DNA of 37,643 bases from a virus: positions 1 through 37,643 of the IMG/VR virus record IMGVR_UViG_3300043958_000061, one strand, 5' to 3'. The first letter of the stretch is position 1. The number at the start of each line of letters is the position of its first letter. Below, piece by piece: positions 673 to 26,720 of this stretch. A program made the position numbers and the translations under genes. Below the pieces are notes generated by a model. That model ran no database searches, had not been told where the DNA came from, and was given only the letters and a program-made list of their open reading frames with translations.

Positions 673-942
673 ATGGGCGGAATTGATACGGGCATCATCG
701 TCGCGGCTATCGCGGCAGTAGGAGGAGTCGCGGTGGCGTGGATCAAATGGCGGACCGATAAAGAGTCGAACGCTATCGCCGTCTTGCGGGTCCTCGTGGA
801 AGAACAAGGCGACGAACTGGAGACGCTCAGGAGCCGTGTGGACGCGCTGGAGCGTGAACGGCAGTCCGATCACGAGTATATCCAGATTTTGCGGGATCAT
901 ATTTATAAGCGACTTCCGCCGCCGCCGCCCCCGCACCCATAA
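673..942 (+). CDS. Lysis-cassette membrane protein (N-terminal TM helix, coiled coil, poly-Pro tail)
   Basis: 89 aa with an N-terminal hydrophobic helix (IIVAAIAAVGGVAVAWI), a charged helical region and a C-terminal PPPPPPPHP. It is the last gene before a strong terminator. Confidence 0.55.
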   Translation: MGGIDTGIIVAAIAAVGGVAVAWIKWRTDKESNAIAVLRVLVEEQGDELETLRSRVDALERERQSDHEYIQILRDHIYKRLPPPPPPHP

Positions 943-949
943 AAACTTT

Positions 950-987
950 CCCCGGTCTCACCTGATGGTGGGGCCGGGGAGTTTTTT
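950..987. terminator. Bidirectional intrinsic terminator between the lysis cassette (+) and the leftward accessory operon with its mini-array (-)
   Basis: 13-bp stem CCCCGGTCTCACC / GGTGGGGCCGGGG with loop TGAT. It is followed by a T6 run on + and flanked by A/T runs on -. Confidence 0.8.
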
Positions 988-1073
988 ATACCCCGTCTGC
1001 ACGGGGAACATTCCTGCTGCACCGATATTTGGTTAACGTAATATCGGCTCATCCCCGTCTGCACGGGGAACAT
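983..1073 (-). CRISPR. Cas-less type I-E-like mini-CRISPR array: repeat (1073..1045), 33-nt spacer (1044..1012), 3'-degenerate repeat (1011..983)
   Basis: Minus-strand repeat 1 is ATGTTCCCCGTGCAGACGGGGATGAGCCG and repeat 2 is ATGTTCCCCGTGCAGACGGGGTATAAAAA, with a 62-bp period. Each has a 6-bp stem and 4-nt loop (CCCCGT GCAG ACGGGG) and GTTCCCCG...CGGGGATGAGCCG flanks, as in I-E repeats such as E. coli GAGTTCCCCGCGCCAGCGGGGATAAACCG. Confidence 0.8.
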
Positions 1074-1086
1074 TGACTCGATGGTA

Positions 1087-1710
1087 TCACTCCTCCCTGG
1101 CTTGGGCGCGGGTTTTCATCTGATAGATCGCGGAGCGGTCAATCTTGTAGCGGCGGGCGAGCGTGGTGGCAGATTCGCCATCCGCGAGCGCCTGGAGGAT
1201 CATACGGTCGCGTTTTTCGACGAGGGTAGCGGCGAGTCTGCGGGCGGCTTCTAGCGCTGCCTGGGTGGGGTCGAGGTTGGTGTGCCAGTCGTCGAGGGCG
1301 GCGAGCTCTTTCCGGTAGGAGGCTTGCATGATTTCGGCGGAGTTGGACCCTGGGTCTGTGCCCTTGTATTGGGTGGGGAGTCGGTGGCCGTGGTCGGTGC
1401 GGGCTTCCCATGCGGGGGTGATCTGCCAGGTTCCGAGGTGGTAGGTGGCGCGGTGTGGACGGCCTGAGGGGACGATCCGTTTCGGGTTCCGCTCGTCGGG
1501 CACTCCGGCAGTGACGAGGAGGATTGAGGGTTCTTCTTTCTTGTCGTCGGGGTCGTCAGGTTTTTTGTCTCCGTCGTGGAGGATGTCCCAGACGATGATC
1601 CAGCCGTCTGCCTGGGCGTCGGTGCCGTCTGCGAGCTGGTAGACGTTTTTTACGGGGTAGGCGGTGCCGGGCTGGTAGTCGATGAGGCCGGCGGTGACGG
1701 TGTGCTCCAT
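1087..1710 (-). CDS. Hypothetical protein with C-terminal helix-turn-helix (candidate regulator of the accessory operon)
   Basis: 207 aa. The RBS GAAAGGAA precedes the ATG at 1710. The C-terminal segment LADGESATTLARRYKIDRSAIYQMK looks like a resolvase/sigma-r4-type HTH. I do not recognise the N-terminal domain. Confidence 0.7.
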   Translation of the reverse strand: MEHTVTAGLIDYQPGTAYPVKNVYQLADGTDAQADGWIIVWDILHDGDKKPDDPDDKKEEPSILLVTAGVPDERNPKRIVPSGRPHRATYHLGTWQITPAWEARTDHGHRLPTQYKGTDPGSNSAEIMQASYRKELAALDDWHTNLDPTQAALEAARRLAATLVEKRDRMILQALADGESATTLARRYKIDRSAIYQMKTRAQAREE

Positions 1711-1734
1711 GAGCGGGGTTCCTTTCTTCGGGGT

Positions 1735-2139
1735 TTAGTAGATCTCTTCGGCATGGTCGAGGATCGCGGTGTAGGCGTCGATGCCGACGTGTCCGGTCTC
1801 GTACTGCCAGTCGACTAGGTCGGAGACGATCTGGAAGAAGTGTTCCATGGTCTCGGCGTCGACGAGTTCGGCGGTGGTGGGGAGGGTGAGGCGCTCGCCC
1901 ATCCATGCGTCGCATGGAGTGTCCTCGGACTCGGGGCCGTCGATGCGGACGATGACCGGATCCGAGGCTTCGATCGCCATGACTGAGATGTAGGCGGCGA
2001 GCTCAGGGAGGGTGTCCATGCCAGAGACTCCGTGGCGTACAGCGTCGTCGTCTCCGTCCATGGGGAAGGAGTACTGCTGCTCTGGGTCGAGCAGGTCGCT
2101 GATGTCGCGGGACTTGTCTTGCATCCGGTAGGTTTCCAT
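1735..2139 (-). CDS. Highly acidic hypothetical protein (candidate DNA mimic / anti-defence protein)
   Basis: 134 aa. The RBS GAGGAAAAG precedes the ATG at 2139. By my count it has 31 D/E against 6 K/R. It is the first gene of a two-gene leftward operon, 24 nt upstream of the next CDS. Confidence 0.7.
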   Translation of the reverse strand: METYRMQDKSRDISDLLDPEQQYSFPMDGDDDAVRHGVSGMDTLPELAAYISVMAIEASDPVIVRIDGPESEDTPCDAWMGERLTLPTTAELVDAETMEHFFQIVSDLVDWQYETGHVGIDAYTAILDHAEEIY

Positions 2140-2156
2140 TTTCTTTTCCTCTCTGC

Positions 2157-2198
2157 CTTACATTGTCTAGTGTACTCTACACTAGACACTAATGTAAG
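2157..2198 (-). promoter_or_regulatory. Imperfect 42-bp palindrome overlapping a candidate sigma70-like promoter of the leftward accessory operon
   Basis: CTTACATTGTCTAGTGTA-CTC-TACACTAGACACTAATGTAAG. On the minus strand, TTACAT (2197..2192), a 17-nt spacer and TACACT (2174..2169) lie inside the dyad. The local region is AT-rich. Confidence 0.45.
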
Positions 2199-2338
2199 AG
2201 GAAAACCATCAATAAATATGCATCACATCACACGCGTGGATTACCGCCTGCACGGATAGCCCACGCCCCGCACGATCACGGCCGGCAGACGTTTTTGATG
2301 GTTTTGATACGGTCCGGGGAAGTAAAAACGAGGGGAAA

Positions 2339-3610
2339 TCACGCCTCAAGAGGAGGCTGTGCCGAACCTTCCAGGTCGAGAAGTTTTGCCACCTGCTCGA
2401 GAGCCTTCGCCGTCTGCGCTGCCGTGACCGTCATGTATCCCTCGGACGTCACGATTGACGAATGTCCAAGTATTTGCGTTATCACCACAGGCTCGATATG
2501 CGCGGCCAGGAGAAGCGATGCTGTAGCATTCCTTGCCTCATGGAGCACGTAGTAGGTGTATGTCGATTTTCCTTGCGCGCCAGCTTTCACGCCCTTGTGG
2601 ATGCCCGCAACCTCTTGGAGGTGCTTCCATTGCGCGAGGTCGTGAGATTTGTTTTCGGGGATGCCGGACGCGTCGTGAGGCCACACGAGATTATATGGGG
2701 ATCCGGGCCAATGGGCTTTCCACGCGAGGAGCCTTTCACGCATCGCGGGGATCATCGGGATCGTCCGGTATCCGGCCCGCGATTTCGGCGGCGTGAGAAA
2801 ATATCGTCCGTACAGGCGGCGCACCTGCATGTCTGGCGGGATGGCGAACGCATCTTTTTCACGGTCAGAATACGGGAGTTCTTGCAGCTGCCACCTGATC
2901 GTGATGAGGTTACGCTGAAAATCGACTTGATCCCACGTGAGGCCAAGACACTCCCCCTGACGCATCCCTTGGAGTAATGCGGCGATCCAGCGAGAGCCGT
3001 CTTGGACGCCTTGCTGTGGGTTGCCTTCGATGGACCAGGAGAGGGCCGCGAGTTTTTTCGCGTCCTCTACTGGTATCGCCGTCCGGTCGGACACTGAGGT
3101 TTTGGGGCGCCGCATCGCGATCACTGCGGCAGGGATGGGCTTTCCTTCCATCACCGCGTCCTTGAGGGCTTGCTGGAGGATCCGCTGCGTGTAGGCGATA
3201 AGCGTCGCGCTGCATCCTGCTTTGTCCATGACTGTGCGGACGGTTCGAATGTGGTCCGGGGTGAGGTCTTTTAGTTGCGTGTCACCGATGGTTGGGATCA
3301 CGTATTTTCGTAGTGGTCCGGATTCCGCGGCGTACGTTTTGGGTCGGACGGTTTGGGCACGTTCGGCTAGCCAGGTGTCTATCCAATGTTTGAGGTCCAT
3401 TCCGTGTGTTGGTGCGGCGACGGGGCCTTCGATGGAAACTTCCTGTTGCCGGTCGCGGAGCTTTTCTTGGCAGAGTTTTTTGGTTTTCGCGGTGACGGTG
3501 AGGCGGCGGCGTTTCCCGGACGCGGTGTATCCGGCGTCAAATTGGCCGCGCCAACGTCCGTCTGGAAGTTGGAAGATTGTTCCGGTGCCTTTGTCGCGTC
3601 GTGTCGTCAT
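2339..3610 (-). CDS. int: Tyrosine integrase
   Basis: N-terminus MTTRRDKGTGTIFQLPDGRWRGQF. Catalytic motifs are GMRQGECLGLTW (Arg), LHEARN (H-x-x-R) and LGHSSIVTSEGY (His/Tyr). The track ORF extends to 3679, but the Met at 3610 fits family N-termini. Confidence 0.9.
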   Translation of the reverse strand: MTTRRDKGTGTIFQLPDGRWRGQFDAGYTASGKRRRLTVTAKTKKLCQEKLRDRQQEVSIEGPVAAPTHGMDLKHWIDTWLAERAQTVRPKTYAAESGPLRKYVIPTIGDTQLKDLTPDHIRTVRTVMDKAGCSATLIAYTQRILQQALKDAVMEGKPIPAAVIAMRRPKTSVSDRTAIPVEDAKKLAALSWSIEGNPQQGVQDGSRWIAALLQGMRQGECLGLTWDQVDFQRNLITIRWQLQELPYSDREKDAFAIPPDMQVRRLYGRYFLTPPKSRAGYRTIPMIPAMRERLLAWKAHWPGSPYNLVWPHDASGIPENKSHDLAQWKHLQEVAGIHKGVKAGAQGKSTYTYYVLHEARNATASLLLAAHIEPVVITQILGHSSIVTSEGYMTVTAAQTAKALEQVAKLLDLEGSAQPPLEA

Positions 3611-3711
3611 GTTGGTTAGCCTATCCGGTAGCCTATCTGTGATACGTCTAGGGTATAGCGTAGGGCGGTCTTTCCGCAAGATTTCGCCAAAAAGTAGCGT
3701 TTACTATAGGG

Positions 3712-3766
3712 TATCCTACCGCCTCCTAAGCGGTAGGTCGAAGGTTCGAATCCTTTCGGGGGCACT
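3712..3766 (+). other. attP core candidate: 3' portion of a tRNA-Arg(CCT) gene (anticodon arm, variable loop, T-arm, 3' acceptor strand)
   Basis: ACCGC-CTCCTAA-GCGGT anticodon arm (anticodon CCT), AGGTC, GAAGG-TTCGAAT-CCTTT T-arm, and CGGGGGC-A acceptor plus discriminator. There is no matching 5' acceptor or D-arm upstream. It lies about 100 bp from the int start. Confidence 0.7.
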
Positions 3767-4163: not shown

Positions 4164-4415
4164 TTACTGGTTTTCTTTTGCCCGTCTCTCGATCTCACTG
4201 AGGAGCTTCGAGAACGGGATGCCGAAAGCCGCCGCGATTGCCGCGAGCTGCACGGCGGTGGGGGATCGAATACCTTCCTCGTAAAGCCTGTACGAAGTTC
4301 TGGTAATTCCGGTCAGCCTCGCCGTTTCGGCTTGTGATTGCTGAGCGATTCCCCGCTCAGCTCGTAGAGTCTCAGCAGTTGCTAGGGCCCACCTTCTTTC
4401 TGTTTCCTGTTCCAT
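4164..4415 (-). CDS. cI-like XRE-family HTH repressor
   Basis: HTH segment QSQAETARLTGITRTSYRLYEEGIRSPTAVQLAAIAAAFGI. It is divergent from a Cro-like gene. The Met at 4415 lies 7 nt from a TAGGCT -10, so it may be leaderless. The track ORF reaches 4457. Confidence 0.8.
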   Translation of the reverse strand: MEQETERRWALATAETLRAERGIAQQSQAETARLTGITRTSYRLYEEGIRSPTAVQLAAIAAAFGIPFSKLLSEIERRAKENQ

Positions 4416-4511
4416 ACGAAACAGCCTAGCATCTGTACGGCAACAAATCAACGTCAATTAGATACACTTTTGCGCTTGCGCATGTTCCGAATGACTACTA
4501 GGATGTTTCAT
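4416..4511. promoter_or_regulatory. Genetic-switch intergenic region with back-to-back candidate promoters and a TGCGC-TT-GCGCA dyad
   Basis: Leftward promoter: TTGATT (4451..4446), 17 nt, TAGGCT (4428..4423), 7 nt, ATG. Rightward promoter: TTGCGC (4476..4481), 17 nt, TAGGAT (4499..4504), 7 nt, ATG at 4512. The dyad at 4471..4482 overlaps the rightward -35. Confidence 0.4.
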
Positions 4512-4754
4512 ATGGCGACACCAAACGAATTGAGCGATCGGCTCGCAGACGCGATCCGAGACGCAACAACAGCCGCGGGAGTCTCTCAACGAGAACTCGC
4601 CGCCCGCACGGGCATTCCACTTGTGACCATAAATCGCAAGCTCAACCACGCGAGCCCGTTCAACGCCATCGAGCTCGGAGCAATCTCCGAAGCCCTTGGC
4701 ACCTCCCTCGTCGATCTCGCCCTCAAGGCCGAAAGGCAGCTTGTACGGGCATGA
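4512..4754 (+). CDS. Cro-like XRE-family HTH regulator
   Basis: MATPNELSDRL...GVSQRELAARTGIPLVTINRKLN. It is divergent from the repressor. The track ORF starts at 4470, but ATG 4512 fits a leaderless start. Confidence 0.75.
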   Translation: MATPNELSDRLADAIRDATTAAGVSQRELAARTGIPLVTINRKLNHASPFNAIELGAISEALGTSLVDLALKAERQLVRA

Positions 4755-4804
4755 GAAAAATGCCTTCACCCGTTGCTGCGGGTGAAGGCGATGAAAGGAA
4801 AACA

Positions 4805-5596
4805 ATGAATCAGATTATCCCATTCACCTACGAGTCTAGCGAGCTACGCACGCTCACGCTAGACGGCGAACCATGGTTTATCGCTGCGGACGTATGCAAA
4901 ATCCTAGAAATTGCGAATCCGACCGACGCAATCAAGCGTCTTGATGAGGACGAGAAGGCTAGATTCAATCTAGGGTTGCCTGGTGGCGGCACAAACGTTG
5001 TCAACGAGTCTGGTTTATACAATCTCATTCTCGGCTCACGCAAGCCAGAAGCTAAAGAGTTTAAGCGCTGGGTGACTCACGAAGTTATCCCCTCGATCCG
5101 CAAGACTGGATCATATGGTACGCCTCAACTCTCCGGCCCGGCGCTCTACCTAGCGGCTATCGAGCAGGCGCAGAGCGAAATTGCGGCCCTCGAAGCGAAA
5201 ACCCGCGAGCTGGAACCGAAAGCTGATTCGTTTGATGGCTTCCTCTCCTCGAGAGGAGACTACAGCCTCAACGAGGGCGCGAAACTCCTCGCCCGTAACG
5301 GCGTACCAGACATCGGGCAAAACCGGCTCCGAGATCACCTGCTGCGGTGGGGCTGGCTCTATCGAGGCCGCAAGAATCGCCTCCGCGCCGCACAGGCCGC
5401 AATCGAAGCCGGCAGACTCGCCGAGCGCACCTCCTGGTACTACGACGACGAGACCGGCGAAAAGCTCGCCGGAGCAGTCCAGGCAGTCATCACACCGAAA
5501 GGCCTCGACGACGTGAAGGCGCGGCTCATGCGCGAACAAGGATTCGCCCTCGTCGATGCTGACGGCAAGGTACTCGCGGAAGTGGAGGCGTCCTGA
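4805..5596 (+). CDS. Antirepressor (Bro-N domain plus KilAC/ANT-like C-terminal domain)
   Basis: N-terminus IIPFTYESSELRTLTLDGEPWFIAADVCKILEI...ESGLYNLILGSRKPEAKEFKRWVTHEVIPSIRKTG is a typical Bro-N. The RBS AAAGGAAAA precedes ATG 4805. Confidence 0.85.
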   Translation: MNQIIPFTYESSELRTLTLDGEPWFIAADVCKILEIANPTDAIKRLDEDEKARFNLGLPGGGTNVVNESGLYNLILGSRKPEAKEFKRWVTHEVIPSIRKTGSYGTPQLSGPALYLAAIEQAQSEIAALEAKTRELEPKADSFDGFLSSRGDYSLNEGAKLLARNGVPDIGQNRLRDHLLRWGWLYRGRKNRLRAAQAAIEAGRLAERTSWYYDDETGEKLAGAVQAVITPKGLDDVKARLMREQGFALVDADGKVLAEVEAS

Positions 5597-6906: not shown

Positions 6907-7079
6907 CTCGATCTGAGGAGAAGTCTTTTATCGCGATCGGTGTGGTGGTTTTCGCGGTCGCCACCGGAGTGATCGTGTCGCAGTGTCCGACCTGGTGGTT
7001 TGTGGGACTCCTACTGGCCACCTATGCGCTCGCGGCGGGCGCTGGAGTGTGGGCGGCAACCAAAGATGAGGAGGAGTGA
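6903..7079 (+). CDS. Small membrane protein (58 aa, two hydrophobic segments); below the ORF-track length cutoff
   Basis: My translation is MTRSEEKSFIAIGVVVFAVATGVIVSQCPTWWFVGLLLATYALAAGAGVWAATKDEEE. It has ATGA coupling upstream, and its stop overlaps the next ATG. Confidence 0.45.
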   Translation: MTRSEEKSFIAIGVVVFAVATGVIVSQCPTWWFVGLLLATYALAAGAGVWAATKDEEE

Positions 7080-12961: not shown

Positions 12962-13946
12962 TTTCGGGAAGCTCTACATGACCGCATGGTCCGATGTTGA
13001 TTTCACCGCGTTGTCCGGAGAGGCGCAGCGCATGTATATGTTCCTGCTTTCACAACCTGATTTGTCGCGCGCTGGCACGATCACGCTCGCGCTCAATCGG
13101 TGGGCAACCAGGGTTGGGAACTATGTTGCAGATGACCTTGTGTGGCATATCTACGAACTTTCGCAGGCGGGTTTCGTTGTCGTGGACGGCGAATGCGAGG
13201 AGCTTCTGGTGCGTTCATACATTCGCCGTGACGAGGGGTGGAAATCGCCAAATATCATGGTGGCAATTGAGGGTGCGGCGAAGAATGTCATGTCCGAATC
13301 GTTACGCGCTGTGATCCGGGATGAAGTGCTTAGGATTGACACTTCGACGCTTCCGACGAAGATCAATGAACGAACGGGTAGATCGACGAAAGATTTCGTT
13401 GAAATGGTGATCCATCGCCTTGCCGACGAGCTTTCTACCTGCGAAAAGGCTGACGAAGTAACCAATTGGAACCCTTCATCAAACGGTTTCGCTAACCCTT
13501 CCCGAAAGGGTTCAAAAAAGAAAGGGTTACCGAAAGGGTTACCGAAAGGGTCCCTAACTACTACTACTACAGCTACTACTACAGCTACAGCTACAGCTAC
13601 AGCTACTACTACCGCCGAACCCGAGGGGTTCGACGAGTTTTGGGAAATCTATCCGAGGCACATGAAGCGCGGCGACGCCATCAAGGCTTTCCACCAGATG
13701 CTCAAAGCTGGCGCGTCCGTGGACGAGATCATCGCGGGCGCACGTCGCTTCGCAGCAGATCCGAACCTGCCAGAGCAAAAGTTCATCCCCTACCCGGCTT
13801 CGTGGCTTCGAGCTGAGGGTTGGCTGGACGATCCGCTGCCACCTCGAAACCGTCCGCAGCCTCAGCGTCCAACTCGCGTGGAGGAAAACATGCAGGTTGT
13901 CCGTGAGCTGATGGCACAGGACGAGCTTAGGCAGGTGGGAGCGTGA
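12951..13946 (+). CDS. Putative replication initiator / replisome organiser with a low-complexity Thr/Ala linker
   Basis: It sits upstream of SSB. The C-terminal FDEFWEIYPRHMKRGDAIKAF...FIPYPASWLRAEGWLDD pattern is common in phage replication-organiser proteins. Internal DNA repeats are listed separately. Confidence 0.55.
   Translation: MSRDFGKLYMTAWSDVDFTALSGEAQRMYMFLLSQPDLSRAGTITLALNRWATRVGNYVADDLVWHIYELSQAGFVVVDGECEELLVRSYIRRDEGWKSPNIMVAIEGAAKNVMSESLRAVIRDEVLRIDTSTLPTKINERTGRSTKDFVEMVIHRLADELSTCEKADEVTNWNPSSNGFANPSRKGSKKKGLPKGLPKGSLTTTTTATTTATATATATTTAEPEGFDEFWEIYPRHMKRGDAIKAFHQMLKAGASVDEIIAGARRFAADPNLPEQKFIPYPASWLRAEGWLDDPLPPRNRPQPQRPTRVEENMQVVRELMAQDELRQVGA
13470..13552. repeat. Iteron-like cluster: AACCCTT x2 (13470, 13494) then GAAAGGGT x4 (13504, 13520, 13532, 13544) inside the replication gene
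   Basis: Read directly. Six copies of the 7-mer AAGGGTT/AACCCTT lie within about 85 bp, and the last three are on a 12-bp period. Confidence 0.6.
13557..13613 (+). repeat. ACT / ACAGCT microsatellite encoding TTTTTATTTATATATATTT
   Basis: Read directly: ACTACTACTACTACAGCTACTACTACAGCTACAGCTACAGCTACAGCTACTACTACC. Confidence 0.9.
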
Positions 13947-25416: not shown

Positions 25417-25786
25417 TATTGACATGCACGAGGTTCGGGATCTCGCTGCCGACTTCTCGCAGATCCCTGGCGAGCTTGCCCGCCACGCCATCCCGGTCGT
25501 TGAGAAGGCCGCGATGAACGTAAAGAAGCAGTTGATTGCCGAGATGCGGGCATCGAAGCATTTCAAAGGCTTCGCAAAGATCTCATACGATCTGACCTCA
25601 GATTCGGGTGGGATTGTTGCTGAAATCGGCCCTACCAAGGATGGTCCTGGCGCGGGTGCGAACCTCGCCTATTTCGGAACATGGAAAGGCGGCGGTACGG
25701 TGCCGGATCCACGCGGCGCCCTCGAAGCGGAATACCCGAATCTAGAACAGCATTTGGCTGATCTAGCTGAGGAGTTGTTCGGATGA
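25403..25786 (+). CDS. Tail-completion (HK97 gp10-like) protein
   Basis: 127 aa. The RBS AGGAGGTGTCTA precedes ATG 25403. Called by position. Confidence 0.6.
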   Translation: MPTVDIDMHEVRDLAADFSQIPGELARHAIPVVEKAAMNVKKQLIAEMRASKHFKGFAKISYDLTSDSGGIVAEIGPTKDGPGAGANLAYFGTWKGGGTVPDPRGALEAEYPNLEQHLADLAEELFG

Positions 25787-26208
25787 GCCGCGCACACTAC
25801 CGGGCGATCGAGGCACACCTCAAGGAGCTGATCCTCTCAGGCAAGACGGTCCCCGGGTTTCTCGGAGACCCGCCCGCCAACACGTCCCTGCCCTACACGT
25901 TCATCACGCCGGTGCCTGCTCCCGCGCATGCGGAAAATGTGGCAGGCAGCAGGGACGTTCTCGATGCCTATTTCAACGTTACGTGCGTTCACACTACAGC
26001 AAACAATTGTTTGGCGTTGACTGAAGCGATGCGGGGACTCCTCGACGATTGGACGCCTGTAGTTGACGGGTGGCTGACCTTCCCCCTCAAACCGGTAGAC
26101 GCACAACCGGTTCAAACATCCACCTCTGCGATGGAGATGGATTCAAACACCTACCCCCGCTGGTCGGTCACACAATACCGACTCCAAGCATGTAAGGAGA
26201 ACAACTAA
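25783..26208 (+). CDS. Tail terminator-like protein
   Basis: 141 aa, ATGA-coupled, directly upstream of the major tail gene. Confidence 0.55.
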   Translation: MSRAHYRAIEAHLKELILSGKTVPGFLGDPPANTSLPYTFITPVPAPAHAENVAGSRDVLDAYFNVTCVHTTANNCLALTEAMRGLLDDWTPVVDGWLTFPLKPVDAQPVQTSTSAMEMDSNTYPRWSVTQYRLQACKENN

Positions 26209-26720
26209 TGCTCACACTCTATGACAAGCATATTTCGTTACGCGTGATGGCCGGGACGCTCGCCGACATTACCGACTTCGACCCGGAAGCCCCCAAGATT
26301 TCTAGCTTCCCGGCACTTGAAGCATCGAAGCTTATGGCAATGTCAGGTTTCGTGCTCGGACCCTCGGGATCGGATTCGGGGTCTGACCCCGCCGTGAACG
26401 GTGACCCGAACCAGTATTTCGGCACATCCGGATACTCGGGGACGCTAACCCCGTACCGGTATTTAGACGATAAGGGAGTCCCTGTTGTCACCGAGGATAC
26501 GTTATGGCCTCTCGTGGTGGCGAAGGGCTCGAATCTGGTTTTGTTCCTACGTGAAGGCCCAGGCTGGGATTCGGATCCTGTGGCGGGGCAGGAAGTTTCG
26601 ATCTTTGAGGCGACGACGGATGACCCGCAGCCTGGTGACCGTTCAGGGTTCATCAAGTATTCGGTTCCTCTTGCGATCCAGAAGGCTTACCTGCACAAAG
26701 TGATCGTTGCAGACGCCTAA
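26208..26720 (+). CDS. Major tail protein
   Basis: 170 aa. It lies before the chaperone pair and is followed by a stable hairpin. Confidence 0.7.
   Translation: MLTLYDKHISLRVMAGTLADITDFDPEAPKISSFPALEASKLMAMSGFVLGPSGSDSGSDPAVNGDPNQYFGTSGYSGTLTPYRYLDDKGVPVVTEDTLWPLVVAKGSNLVLFLREGPGWDSDPVAGQEVSIFEATTDDPQPGDRSGFIKYSVPLAIQKAYLHKVIVADA

Follow-up and report, generated by a model that had tools for sequence, protein, structure and literature searches.

A putative autoregulated protein and RNA anti-CRISPR operon against type I-E in a phage of Actinomyces-like bacteria

A short leftward operon in the virus record IMGVR_UViG_3300043958_000061 is probably an autoregulated protein and RNA anti-CRISPR operon directed against host type I-E, carried by a temperate phage of Actinomyces-like bacteria. 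The window, i.e. the whole stretch of DNA that was analysed, comprises 37,643 nt and does not contain cas genes. A gene for an acidic protein (ORF-A) and a gene for a protein with a helix-turn-helix (HTH) motif (ORF-B) are followed by two copies of a type I-E-like CRISPR repeat with a spacer-like segment in between. This anatomy is conserved across related phages (referred to below by locus numbers such as L004), in which the operator changes together with the HTH. We infer the account of the module as a whole from comparison of these loci.

Organization of the operon

The features of the locus are as follows.

2157 to 2198, minus strand: candidate promoter with overlapping operator, a palindrome with -35 and -10 elements
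1735 to 2139, minus strand: ORF-A, an acidic open reading frame of 134 aa (pI 4.05), first gene of the operon
1087 to 1710, minus strand: ORF-B, an open reading frame of 207 aa, with the stop codon TGA at 1089-1087
1045 to 1073, minus strand: CRISPR type I-E-like repeat 1, 29 nt, ATGTTCCCCGTGCAGACGGGGATGAGCCG, recognized by sequence and hairpin
1012 to 1044, minus strand: spacer-like segment of 33 nt, ATATTACGTTAACCAAATATCGGTGCAGCAGGA, between the two repeat copies
982 to 1011, minus strand: terminal repeat 2, of which the hairpin part (1011-991) equals repeat 1, with a degenerate 3' tail TATAAAAAA
942 to 987: bidirectional intrinsic terminator with a hairpin at 948-981

ORF-A and ORF-B are located on the same strand, with 24 nt between the stop of the former and the start of the latter, and the pair has a single promoter upstream and a single terminator downstream. 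The -35 (TTACAT, 2197-2192) and -10 (TACACT, 2174-2169) elements of the candidate promoter are separated by 17 nt; a generic sigma-70 scan did not call it. The overlapping palindrome displays perfect 11-nt arms (2164-2174/2178-2188) and outer arms TTACATT/AATGTAA, with the operator core GTCTAGTGT-N5-ACACTAGAC at 2165-2187, and occurs once in the window (0 expected by chance). It is conserved in 5 loci. The core and the -35/17 nt/-10 layout are found in the related L004, L043, L047 and L055, and they are kept even where the first gene of the relatives is a different one. The hairpin of the terminator is flanked by an A-run and a T-run and is thus able to act both ways; it ends the operon, which runs leftward, as well as the lysis cassette, which runs rightward.

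A preliminary description of this DNA had listed an acidic 134-aa first gene, a 207-aa second gene ending in an HTH, a CRISPR repeat unit behind it, a promoter overlapped by a palindrome, and a terminator acting in both directions. All of these were recovered, repeat 1 starting 13 nt after the ORF-B stop. No Rfam family matched the operon region, and GenBank phages displayed no DNA match for positions 900-3700 of the window. Rfam also gave a signal for a tRNA-like fragment at 3707-3756.

Conserved, exchanged and co-varying parts in related phages

Hairpins of I-E-like repeats are located 12-13 nt after the ORF-B stop in 9 of the 9 ORF-B lineages with a 3' flank (the window, L004, L043, L054, L055, L047, L046, L007 and L045). 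The element at this position is either a repeat on its own, a unit with one spacer, or a series of 3-5 units: L004-L006, relatives with 95% identity, carry exactly one solitary repeat each, and L007 (clade 2) and L045 have several heterogeneous pseudo-repeats in an array, separated by pseudo-spacers of about 23-25 nt. The repeat units display 8-nt handle-like tails and a period of 61-62 nt. This class of hairpin is restricted to ORF-B loci and to L001-L003; 33 other phage loci, with ORF-A only, lack it.

The first gene, on the other hand, is exchangeable. ORF-A occupies this slot in the window, L004, L007 and L045, whereas L043, L054, L055, L046 and L047 have a GNAT-like protein of 109-113 aa there. 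The GNAT-like protein is acidic as well and unrelated to ORF-A, and its gene lies between the same operator and ORF-B. ORF-B itself falls into two clades. Clade 1 is associated with the operator GTCTAGTGT-N5-ACACTAGAC and a resolvase-like HTH, and clade 2 with the operator palindrome ACAGCGCTAGCGCTGT and a different C-terminus; in the sequences compared, HTH type and operator co-vary between the two. A third architecture, found in L001, links ORF-A to type I-E. The first gene of the operon is there a homologue of ORF-A (74% identical), and the other members are an HTH gene, a lone homologue of Cas8e/Cse1 (Pfam E = 1e-44) and a further two repeat-like units.

Two genes, a palindromic operator and an HTH protein are also typical of toxin-antitoxin modules. 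The locus could hence be a prophage moron unrelated to CRISPR (a toxin-antitoxin, small defence or regulatory pair), with hairpins whose only role is in mRNA 3'-end processing or stability. Homologues of ORF-A are indeed found in many phages in early-gene regions beside nucleotide-metabolism genes, with no CRISPR-like element near, and in Gordonia phage Finkle the remote ORF-A homologue gp31 is located ahead of HTH genes, with repeats absent. However, ORF-B and the repeats persist in relatives where ORF-A has given way to a GNAT-like gene, which argues against an obligate toxin-antitoxin pair, and the hairpins display not only the sequence and geometry of I-E repeats but also the handle-like tails and the regular period given above. 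A Cas8e homologue has been added in one relative, and neither PADLOC nor toxin-antitoxin families gave a match. A moron of this kind appears very unlikely to us. The Acr-Aca-like operon tied to CRISPR that the preliminary description had envisaged is supported by the recurring operator, HTH gene, swappable first gene and CRISPR-like unit; its view of ORF-A as a DNA mimic is not supported.

The first gene product

ORF-A, in the anti-CRISPR interpretation that we prefer, is a candidate type I-E anti-CRISPR effector. Its family comprises 398 database entries, each a cluster at 90% identity, and remote relatives add up to 165 cluster representatives. About 20 residues are invariant, and the polar and glycine residues among them include R5, S24, R35, G37, S39, Y50, D77 and E82. 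The predicted model is a compact alpha/beta fold (pLDDT 95.8). No matches were obtained in Pfam, PHROG, PADLOC, NCBIfam or the PDB. Because most loci of the ORF-A family are without a CRISPR-like element, ORF-A may act on a target outside CRISPR.

ORF-A might instead mimic DNA in the manner of Ocr or ArdA, and thereby inhibit restriction-modification or those Cas proteins that bind DNA. In favour of this, it is strongly acidic (31 D/E versus 6 K/R, pI 4.05), and its position in the operon suits an anti-defence gene. However, Foldseek returned neither Ocr nor ArdA nor any other match (best E = 0.46 in the PDB and E = 0.11 in BFVD), and the invariant residues listed above suggest a specific binding or catalytic site instead of a smeared negative surface. 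The gene that takes the place of ORF-A in relatives has an enzyme-like GNAT fold. Together with the compact model, these data make a DNA mimic highly improbable, and nothing was found that links the module to restriction-modification, a role which had been proposed with it.

The motifs YR..., RHGVS... and GE.L.LP and weak Foldseek matches had suggested an ADP-ribosyltransferase, i.e. an enzymatic anti-CRISPR like AcrIF11. This assignment is unsupported. The Foldseek matches with cholera toxin/LT-A are weak (E of at least 1, TM 0.34-0.39), hhalign gave a probability of 0.2% against a cholera-toxin A1 sequence, and in many remote homologues Ala stands at the position of Glu82, the candidate catalytic residue. 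Pfam ART families matched none of 57 ORF-A family members and none of 10 long remote homologues.

The HTH protein

In ORF-B, about residues 16-105 form a beta-rich domain at the N-terminus, where the conserved beta domain measures 120 aa, and a C-terminal helical region ends in the HTH at about residues 162-206. This region displays weak similarity with HTH_29/28/23/7 and Mor (E about 0.01, all under the Pfam cut-offs), and the AlphaFold2 model (pLDDT 70) is helical there. The family is rare, with 7 protein clusters. Significant matches were not found in Pfam, PHROGs, NCBIfam or PADLOC, no solved protein chain displayed significant similarity by sequence or by Foldseek, and GenBank phages gave no protein match. 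Homology of either protein with Acr or Aca families was searched in Pfam, PHROGs, NCBIfam, PADLOC, the PDB and by Foldseek, none of which is a dedicated Acr/Aca collection; in the general libraries (Pfam, PHROGs, NCBIfam, PADLOC, PDB) neither ORF-A nor ORF-B matched a known family.

By analogy, we regard ORF-B as a candidate Aca-like autoregulator. It is the gene that is strictly coupled to the repeats, and hence it may itself be an inhibitor, possibly as an Acr-Aca fusion. Further candidate relationships were rejected. The 189-aa protein of L001 displays no similarity with the N-terminal domain of ORF-B, the 189-aa protein of L031 none with ORF-A, and the two none with each other; similarity of Finkle gp30 with the HTH of L001 or with the C-terminus of ORF-B is marginal or absent.

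The repeat-spacer unit and its possible targets

Repeat 1 folds into the hairpin CCCCGT-GCAG-ACGGGG, followed by an 8-nt tail resembling a 5' handle (ATGAGCCG); the repeat sequence for comparison with host arrays is GTTCCCCGTGCAGACGGGGATGAGCCG. A core of 19 nt is present in 2 copies in the window (0.01 expected by chance). Across 21 repeat units, 99.2% of the stem positions pair and 14 positions are altered on both sides, i.e. compensated; none of 500 shuffles reached the observed values of pairing and compensation. The unit consists of two repeats and one spacer, such that the repeat in the window is not solitary, and the spacer is not a shortened pseudo-spacer. Its GC content is 39%, versus 58% for the genome.

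A repeat of 29 nt and a spacer of 33 nt are the canonical lengths of type I-E. The unit might hence be a genuine virus-borne mini-CRISPR array, whose crRNA arms the Cascade and Cas3 of the host against related rival phages (superinfection exclusion), with ORF-A and ORF-B as accessory or regulatory genes that merely share the transcript. The spacer alleles (ATATTACGTTAACCAAATATCGG..., ATATTACGTTAACCGCCTATCGG..., ATATTACGTTATCCGCGTGATAG..., AGATTACGTTGGCTATCAG...) bear on this question. They keep the 11-14 nt at the 5' end and diverge in the 3' part. For three of these alleles, the DNA flanking the spacer displays an identity of about 90-95%. A second seed, AGTGG.TGGAA, is common to L007 and L001, with position 6 as the sole difference.

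In favour of such an array, the start of the major tail protein gene of this phage group (window 26230-26240) agrees with the conserved seed except for a mismatch at position 6, and in the allele of L054 the similarity to this site runs on by CGCGTGAT after a 2-nt indel. In type I-E, seed position 6 is flipped out. The seeds of L047 and L046 match the window at 13391 and 25639. However, three seed matches versus 0.8 expected are marginal (P about 0.05), and the three sites have no PAM in common. Searches with the exact 23-mer and 17-mer of the window spacer retrieved from IMG/VR only sister phages with the same array or unrelated chance matches, and the 23-mer, by exact matching, retrieved nothing from JGI metagenomes, such that no full-length protospacer was found in either. 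Alleles that keep the seed and lose the 3' two-thirds would abolish interference, and close relatives carry a solitary repeat and others spacers of 23-25 nt. We therefore consider an immune array possible, though unlikely. The data suggest instead that the unit may behave like a regulatory or decoy crRNA and not like an immune spacer.

No target was identified for the conserved seed. An identity of 15 nt between the 3' half of the window spacer and a gene for a 166-aa protein in the tail region of L004 and L043 was treated as chance (P about 0.1 after correction for the number of comparisons); this gene is absent from the window, and no further homologues of it were retrieved. Among 185,579 species genomes, a Deinococcus MAG is the only one with the exact 22-nt repeat core. 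The core lies there in an orphan array surrounded by housekeeping genes, which is of no help in assigning host or CRISPR type; a cognate host array was not found among these genomes with the exact repeat core.

Proposed mechanism and significance

Based on this dataset, we hypothesize the following course of events for the anti-CRISPR operon. A single transcript, from the operator-overlapped promoter to the terminator, would comprise ORF-A, ORF-B and the CRISPR-like unit. After a first burst of expression, the C-terminal HTH of ORF-B would bind to the operator and switch off the promoter, as Aca proteins do. ORF-A would act as cargo inhibitor of CRISPR-Cas, a task that may fall to the small GNAT-like protein in relatives with that gene in the slot, and the conserved N-terminal domain of ORF-B might provide a second inhibitor or a factor working with the RNA. 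The repeat hairpins would be recognized and processed by the Cas6e of the host, and the processed RNA would take up Cascade subunits as a decoy, in the way of a Racr, with inhibition of CRISPR as the presumed outcome. Since the first 11-14 nt alone are conserved, the RNA may also guide Cascade, by the seed only, to a regulatory target without cleavage, as in Cracr, viral RNAs that repress Cas or CreT by pairing partially, in the PAM-proximal part, with a cas or creT promoter of the host.

A more far-reaching version appears quite unlikely to us. Here, the N-terminal beta domain of ORF-B would be a dedicated partner of phage crRNA-like RNAs, turning the I-E Cascade of the host into a phage-controlled, non-cleaving, seed-guided DNA binder. 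Relatives of the L001 type would add their own Cas8e large subunit in order to form a hybrid complex, and ORF-A and the GNAT-like proteins would be interchangeable inhibitors, enzymatic or stoichiometric, of the remaining immune complexes.

To our knowledge, the type I-E anti-CRISPRs described are almost entirely from Proteobacteria. With ORF-A, ORF-B and the mini-GNAT, the locus adds three families of candidate inhibitor proteins, together with an RNA component, from phages of Actinomycetaceae-type hosts. ORF-B is linked to viral crRNA-like RNAs as tightly as acrIF24 is in type I-F, and may serve as bait for more of them. The conservation of the seed among the spacer alleles points to a regulatory target which is open to direct search, and in L001 the lone Cas8e beside RNAs of this kind hints at yet another means of subverting Cascade.

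Comparison with known systems

Acr-Aca operons are controlled by regulators classified as Aca1-Aca14 (bioRxiv 10.64898/2026.07.27.740549). The locus resembles them in its small variable gene ahead of a conserved HTH gene, and in an inverted repeat over the promoter, with an operator that changes along with the HTH. It differs in that ORF-B has no significant match in the general libraries Pfam, PHROGs, NCBIfam and PADLOC, and in that ORF-B has an additional conserved beta domain of 120 aa, the HTH being its exchangeable part.

Virus-borne mini-CRISPR arrays are said to take part in conflicts between viruses, reportedly in work of Medvedeva and colleagues and of Faure and colleagues, both from 2019. 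The locus shares with these an array of one spacer, without cas genes, on a virus whose host would have the matching CRISPR type; unlike them, it has no matching protospacer in other viruses by exact search, and its spacer evolves as a seed-only guide.

RNA anti-CRISPRs (Racr) derive from solitary repeat units and occur in acr-racr operons (Camara-Wilpert et al. 2023, PMC10651486); RacrIC1, for instance, shares a transcript with an AcrIC5 homologue, which it follows at a distance of 11 nt (PMC10651486). The supplements of that paper contain neither these contigs nor this repeat. Common to both is a phage-borne CRISPR repeat without cas genes, some 11-13 nt downstream of a protein gene and, here by inference, on the same transcript. 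The repeats also cluster with candidate acr genes, and in L004-L006 there is one solitary repeat. In contrast, a spacer and a second repeat are present in the window, and ORF-A and ORF-B are unrelated to known Acrs in the general libraries searched.

AcrIF24 is an anti-CRISPR protein of about 200 aa that bears an HTH. Cracr RNAs, which form arrays of short pseudo-spacers, are tightly linked to its gene (Liu et al., bioRxiv 10.1101/2024.10.29.618823). The present module has in common with them a crRNA-like viral RNA beside a gene for a protein of about 200 aa with a terminal HTH, the several heterogeneous pseudo-repeats with short pseudo-spacers in L007 and L045, and a spacer conserved in its PAM-proximal part only. 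A chain named AcrIF24 was not among the top 50 Foldseek matches listed for ORF-B. Cracr belongs to type I-F and to Proteobacteria, whereas the present locus resembles type I-E and comes from Actinomycetaceae-type phages, and the spacer of the window has the full length of 33 nt. Taken together, these analogies suggest that the locus may be a form of the known strategy of combining Acr with Racr or Cracr, with protein families that have not been described before.

Organization of the operon

The window genome belongs to a temperate siphophage (37.6 kb, 58% GC), in which a two-gene leftward operon sits between the integrase and the lysis genes. We consider it reasonably probable that this operon is an autoregulated module directed against type I-E systems. 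The locus anatomy is established by the features below; comparison with related loci establishes that it is conserved, that HTH and operator co-vary, and that conservation of the spacers is biased to the seed.

Features of the window
left end, lysis genes
1087-1710 (-), ORF-B, 207 aa, starting 24 nt past the ORF-A stop
1735-2139 (-), ORF-A, 134 aa, 31 D/E versus 6 K/R, pI 4.05
2339-3679 (-), integrase
4164-5596, cI/Cro-like pair and Bro/ANT antirepressor
26208-26717, major tail protein
13 nt past the ORF-B TGA stop, repeat 1, 29 nt, ATGTTCCCCGTGCAGACGGGGATGAGCCG
directly after repeat 1, spacer, 33 nt
after the spacer, repeat 2, hairpin intact, tail degenerate
end of the repeat unit, bidirectional terminator

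The repeat core occurs twice in the window, versus a chance expectation of 0.01. The upstream palindrome, GTCTAGTGT-N5-ACACTAGAC, occurs once in the window and lies between and over the promoter elements TTACAT-17 nt-TACACT. The preliminary description of this locus (ORFs, charge, repeat unit, terminator, palindromic promoter) proved correct in all details. We infer co-transcription of operon and repeats, since the 13 nt leave no room for a promoter and there is a single terminator.

The spacer and the last bases of repeat 1 can fold as a hairpin (1022-1047, CCGATATTTGGTT/AACGTAATATCGG, 85% complementary); the allele of the related locus L055 could form the outer CCGATA/TATCGG pairs as well, and that of L054 could not. 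Just past the integrase gene lies the probable attP core, a tRNA-like fragment (3707-3756(+)) that scores 25 bits with the Rfam tRNA model, below its threshold. A complete tRNA-Arg(TCT) directly adjoins the sister prophage L004 (L004:54-127), and the first phage feature there is the operon, not an integrase; the window phage and L004 therefore use different integration modules. A reverse transcriptase gene (RVT_1) lies beside the tail-end genes in sister phages (L004:5581-6391(-), L005:5580-6390(-)), with no counterpart seen in the examined parts of the window; a diversity-generating retroelement is one possible reading.

Repeat hairpins in related loci

Nine ORF-B lineages have sequence 3' of the gene, and all nine carry I-E-like repeat hairpins 12-13 nt past the ORF-B stop.

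Repeat units downstream of ORF-B
window and L043: two repeats, one spacer
L054, L055, L047 and L046: one spacer each
L004-L006: solitary repeat
L007: four units, 23-25-nt spacers
L045: at least five units

Hairpins of this class (stem starting with CCCC, 5-7 bp, six in nearly all units; loop of 3-7 nt, four in nearly all units; I-E-type tail) were detected by a scan in all nine lineages and in the related loci L001-L003; a further 33 phage loci with ORF-A and without ORF-B yielded none that was convincing. Among 21 units, compensatory changes occur at two stem positions (GC/AU/UA at one, CG/UA at the other), and the observed covariation was reached by no shuffle. Stem pairing amounts to 99.2%, a value that is partly circular because most units were collected by a scan requiring a paired stem; the fixed position and period of the units are independent of that scan. 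These data show selection on the predicted repeat hairpins.

The sole match to the repeat in a scan of the genome collection was an orphan array in a Deinococcus sp. MAG (L044:2400-3700, JAUNHF010000003.1). Its repeats number about 22 and recur every 61 nt, and 17 of them share the core of the phage repeat exactly, TTCCCCGTGCAGACGGGGATGA. The array is surrounded by the housekeeping genes dxr, cdsA, frr, pyrH and tsf, and no cas gene occurs within 4 kb of it.

The ORF-A family

In Actinomyces-type sequences, the ORF-A family comprises 398 database entries, every one of them a cluster at 90% identity; a further 165 cluster representatives are more distant relatives, mostly acidic and of 105-160 aa, some with zinc-ribbon inserts and a few fused into longer proteins. 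Close members share about 20 invariant positions, and R5, S24, G37, S39, L47, Y50, D77 and L84 are conserved at 90% or more across the wide family. The confident AlphaFold2 model (pLDDT 95.8) consists of a small alpha/beta domain with two helices after it. Structure and family searches returned nothing significant for ORF-A (Foldseek against PDB and BFVD; HMM against PDB sequences, Pfam, PHROGs, NCBIfam and PADLOC). The acidic profile had suggested a DNA mimic. Invariant residues and a confident fold with no structural match are unlike a loosely conserved mimic, and we regard this role as very unlikely. A minimal ADP-ribosyltransferase, an idea raised during this analysis, was not borne out.

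Most homologues are found in early regions of phages of about 31 kb, beside thymidylate synthase, deaminase and SNF2 helicase genes and with repeats absent nearby. Gordonia phage Finkle (L060, NC_073459.1) encodes a remote homologue, gp31 (32% identity, E = 7e-5), directly followed by two genes annotated as HTH and no repeats; genes 31-29 lie between integrase and membrane-protein genes. These repeat-free homologues mark ORF-A as a widespread accessory gene, tied to CRISPR by circumstantial evidence. Finkle, a cultured temperate phage, offers a tractable system for testing the family.

A related operon with a Cas8e homologue

In L001-L003, an ORF-A homologue (74% identical) is first in an operon with its own palindromic promoter. 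Behind it come an acidic protein of 189 aa, a pair of repeat-like hairpins, an HTH protein of 121 aa, a lone 466-aa Cas8e/Cse1 homologue, a further repeat-spacer-repeat unit and a terminator. The Cas8e/Cse1 homologue (L001:5549-6949, JGI 3300045593 Ga0455786_00070) has a Pfam match with E = 1e-44 that covers model positions 1-292 of 450 only. It is flanked by repeat-like units (L001:5040-5125 and 6975-7065), with no other cas genes nearby, and may be a Cascade subunit encoded by a mobile element and used for subversion. As judged from sequence, this operon independently links ORF-A to type I-E components. A moron or toxin-antitoxin pair unrelated to CRISPR is, in our estimate, an improbable reading of the window operon.

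Three paralogous proteins of L001 (11-685, 1060-1977, 7144-8043) begin with a common motif, MSTYDETKHRRGGNPANVGQYSPKDHAEAEGV, and differ beyond it, where their acidic C-terminal parts are unrelated. A related motif, HPRD..GKF, stands ahead of the ORF-A-like domain in the remote homologue P0272. The pattern resembles an N-terminal tag shared by accessory proteins of a mobile element.

Putative regulator, operator and first gene

The ORF-B family is very small (seven clusters). A conserved beta-rich domain occupies the first 120 residues or so, and the predicted C-terminal DNA-binding part differs between two clades. The HTH end noted previously is helical in the AlphaFold2 model (residues 162-206), and its HTH matches are all sub-threshold. 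The model is mediocre (pLDDT 70) and had no neighbours in the structure search.

The first gene is ORF-A in four lineages. In the other five it encodes an acidic protein unrelated to ORF-A, 109-113 aa long with a pI of about 4, that weakly matches GNAT acetyltransferases (Acetyltransf_7, E = 4e-5; L043:5053-5394(-), L055:2633-2974, L046:120-449, L047:68-397). To our knowledge, AcrVA5 is the only enzymatic acetyltransferase Acr. The putative clade-1 operator and its -35/-10 layout are kept regardless of the first gene; in clade 2, where the C-terminal HTH is of the other kind, the palindrome beside TATAGT is also a different one, ACAGCGCTAGCGCTGT. A conserved putative regulator, a co-varying predicted operator and interchangeable cargo are hallmarks of acr-aca loci. 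The suggested Acr-Aca-like character is thereby upheld for this pattern, which recurs in relatives; for ORF-A itself the tie to CRISPR stays circumstantial.

Spacer alleles and seed matches

Clade-1 spacer alleles
window and L043: ATATTACGTTAACCAAATATCGGTGCAGCAGGA
L055: ATATTACGTTAACCGCCTATCGGTGCAATAAAA
L054: ATATTACGTTATCCGCGTGATAGCAGGCAGAAC
L047: AGATTACGTTGGCTATCAGTCGAGAGATCGGC

In the window/L043, L055 and L054 alleles, only the first 11-14 spacer nt are kept, within surrounding DNA that is about 90-95% identical. A second seed, AGTGG.TGGAA, is common to L007 and L001 and differs solely at position 6; type I-E Cascade leaves spacer position 6 unpaired. An immune spacer should display a full-length target match or uniform decay. 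Regulatory crRNA-like RNAs, and the Cracrs that are their viral copies, are described as conserving the seed alone (bioRxiv 10.1101/2024.10.29.618823).

Seed-only matches in the window
13391-13401 (+), L047 seed
25639-25649 (+), L046 seed
26230-26240 (+), clade-1 seed, 22 nt into the major tail protein gene

At each of the three sites all 10 pairing positions match, and spacer position 6 is the only one mismatched. At the 26230 site, the L054 allele shows additional similarity; L056 and L057 conserve this site, and L058 and L059, alleles with 88% identity, do not. Such matches, including that in the major tail protein gene, would suit a mini-array aimed at other phages. However, exact 23-mer and 17-mer searches found no target outside sister phages, and the seed sites have no shared PAM. 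As three matches versus about 0.8 expected are not decisive, inter-phage conflict stays alive as an explanation, which we judge rather unlikely.

Comparison with known systems

As an anti-type-I-E module, the operon would be repressed at its promoter by ORF-B, and Cas6e would process the repeat RNA, which may act as decoy or guide; ORF-A, the GNAT-like protein and the ORF-B N-domain are candidate inhibitors. The combination of an Acr and its Aca regulator with a Racr (solitary-repeat RNA anti-CRISPR) or Cracr RNA is already published as a strategy. The solitary-repeat relatives (L004-L006) correspond to Racrs, one validated example of which lies 11 nt past an acr gene in the same transcript (PMC10651486), and the seed-only spacer conservation matches the pattern described for Cracrs. 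To the extent that sequence comparison can tell, the protein families, with no match to described families in the libraries searched, appear to be new, as do the strict pairing, in Actinomycetaceae-type phages, of an HTH-fusion protein with viral crRNA-like RNAs of the I-E type, the full-length spacers with only the seed conserved, and the Cas8e-bearing relative (L001-L003).
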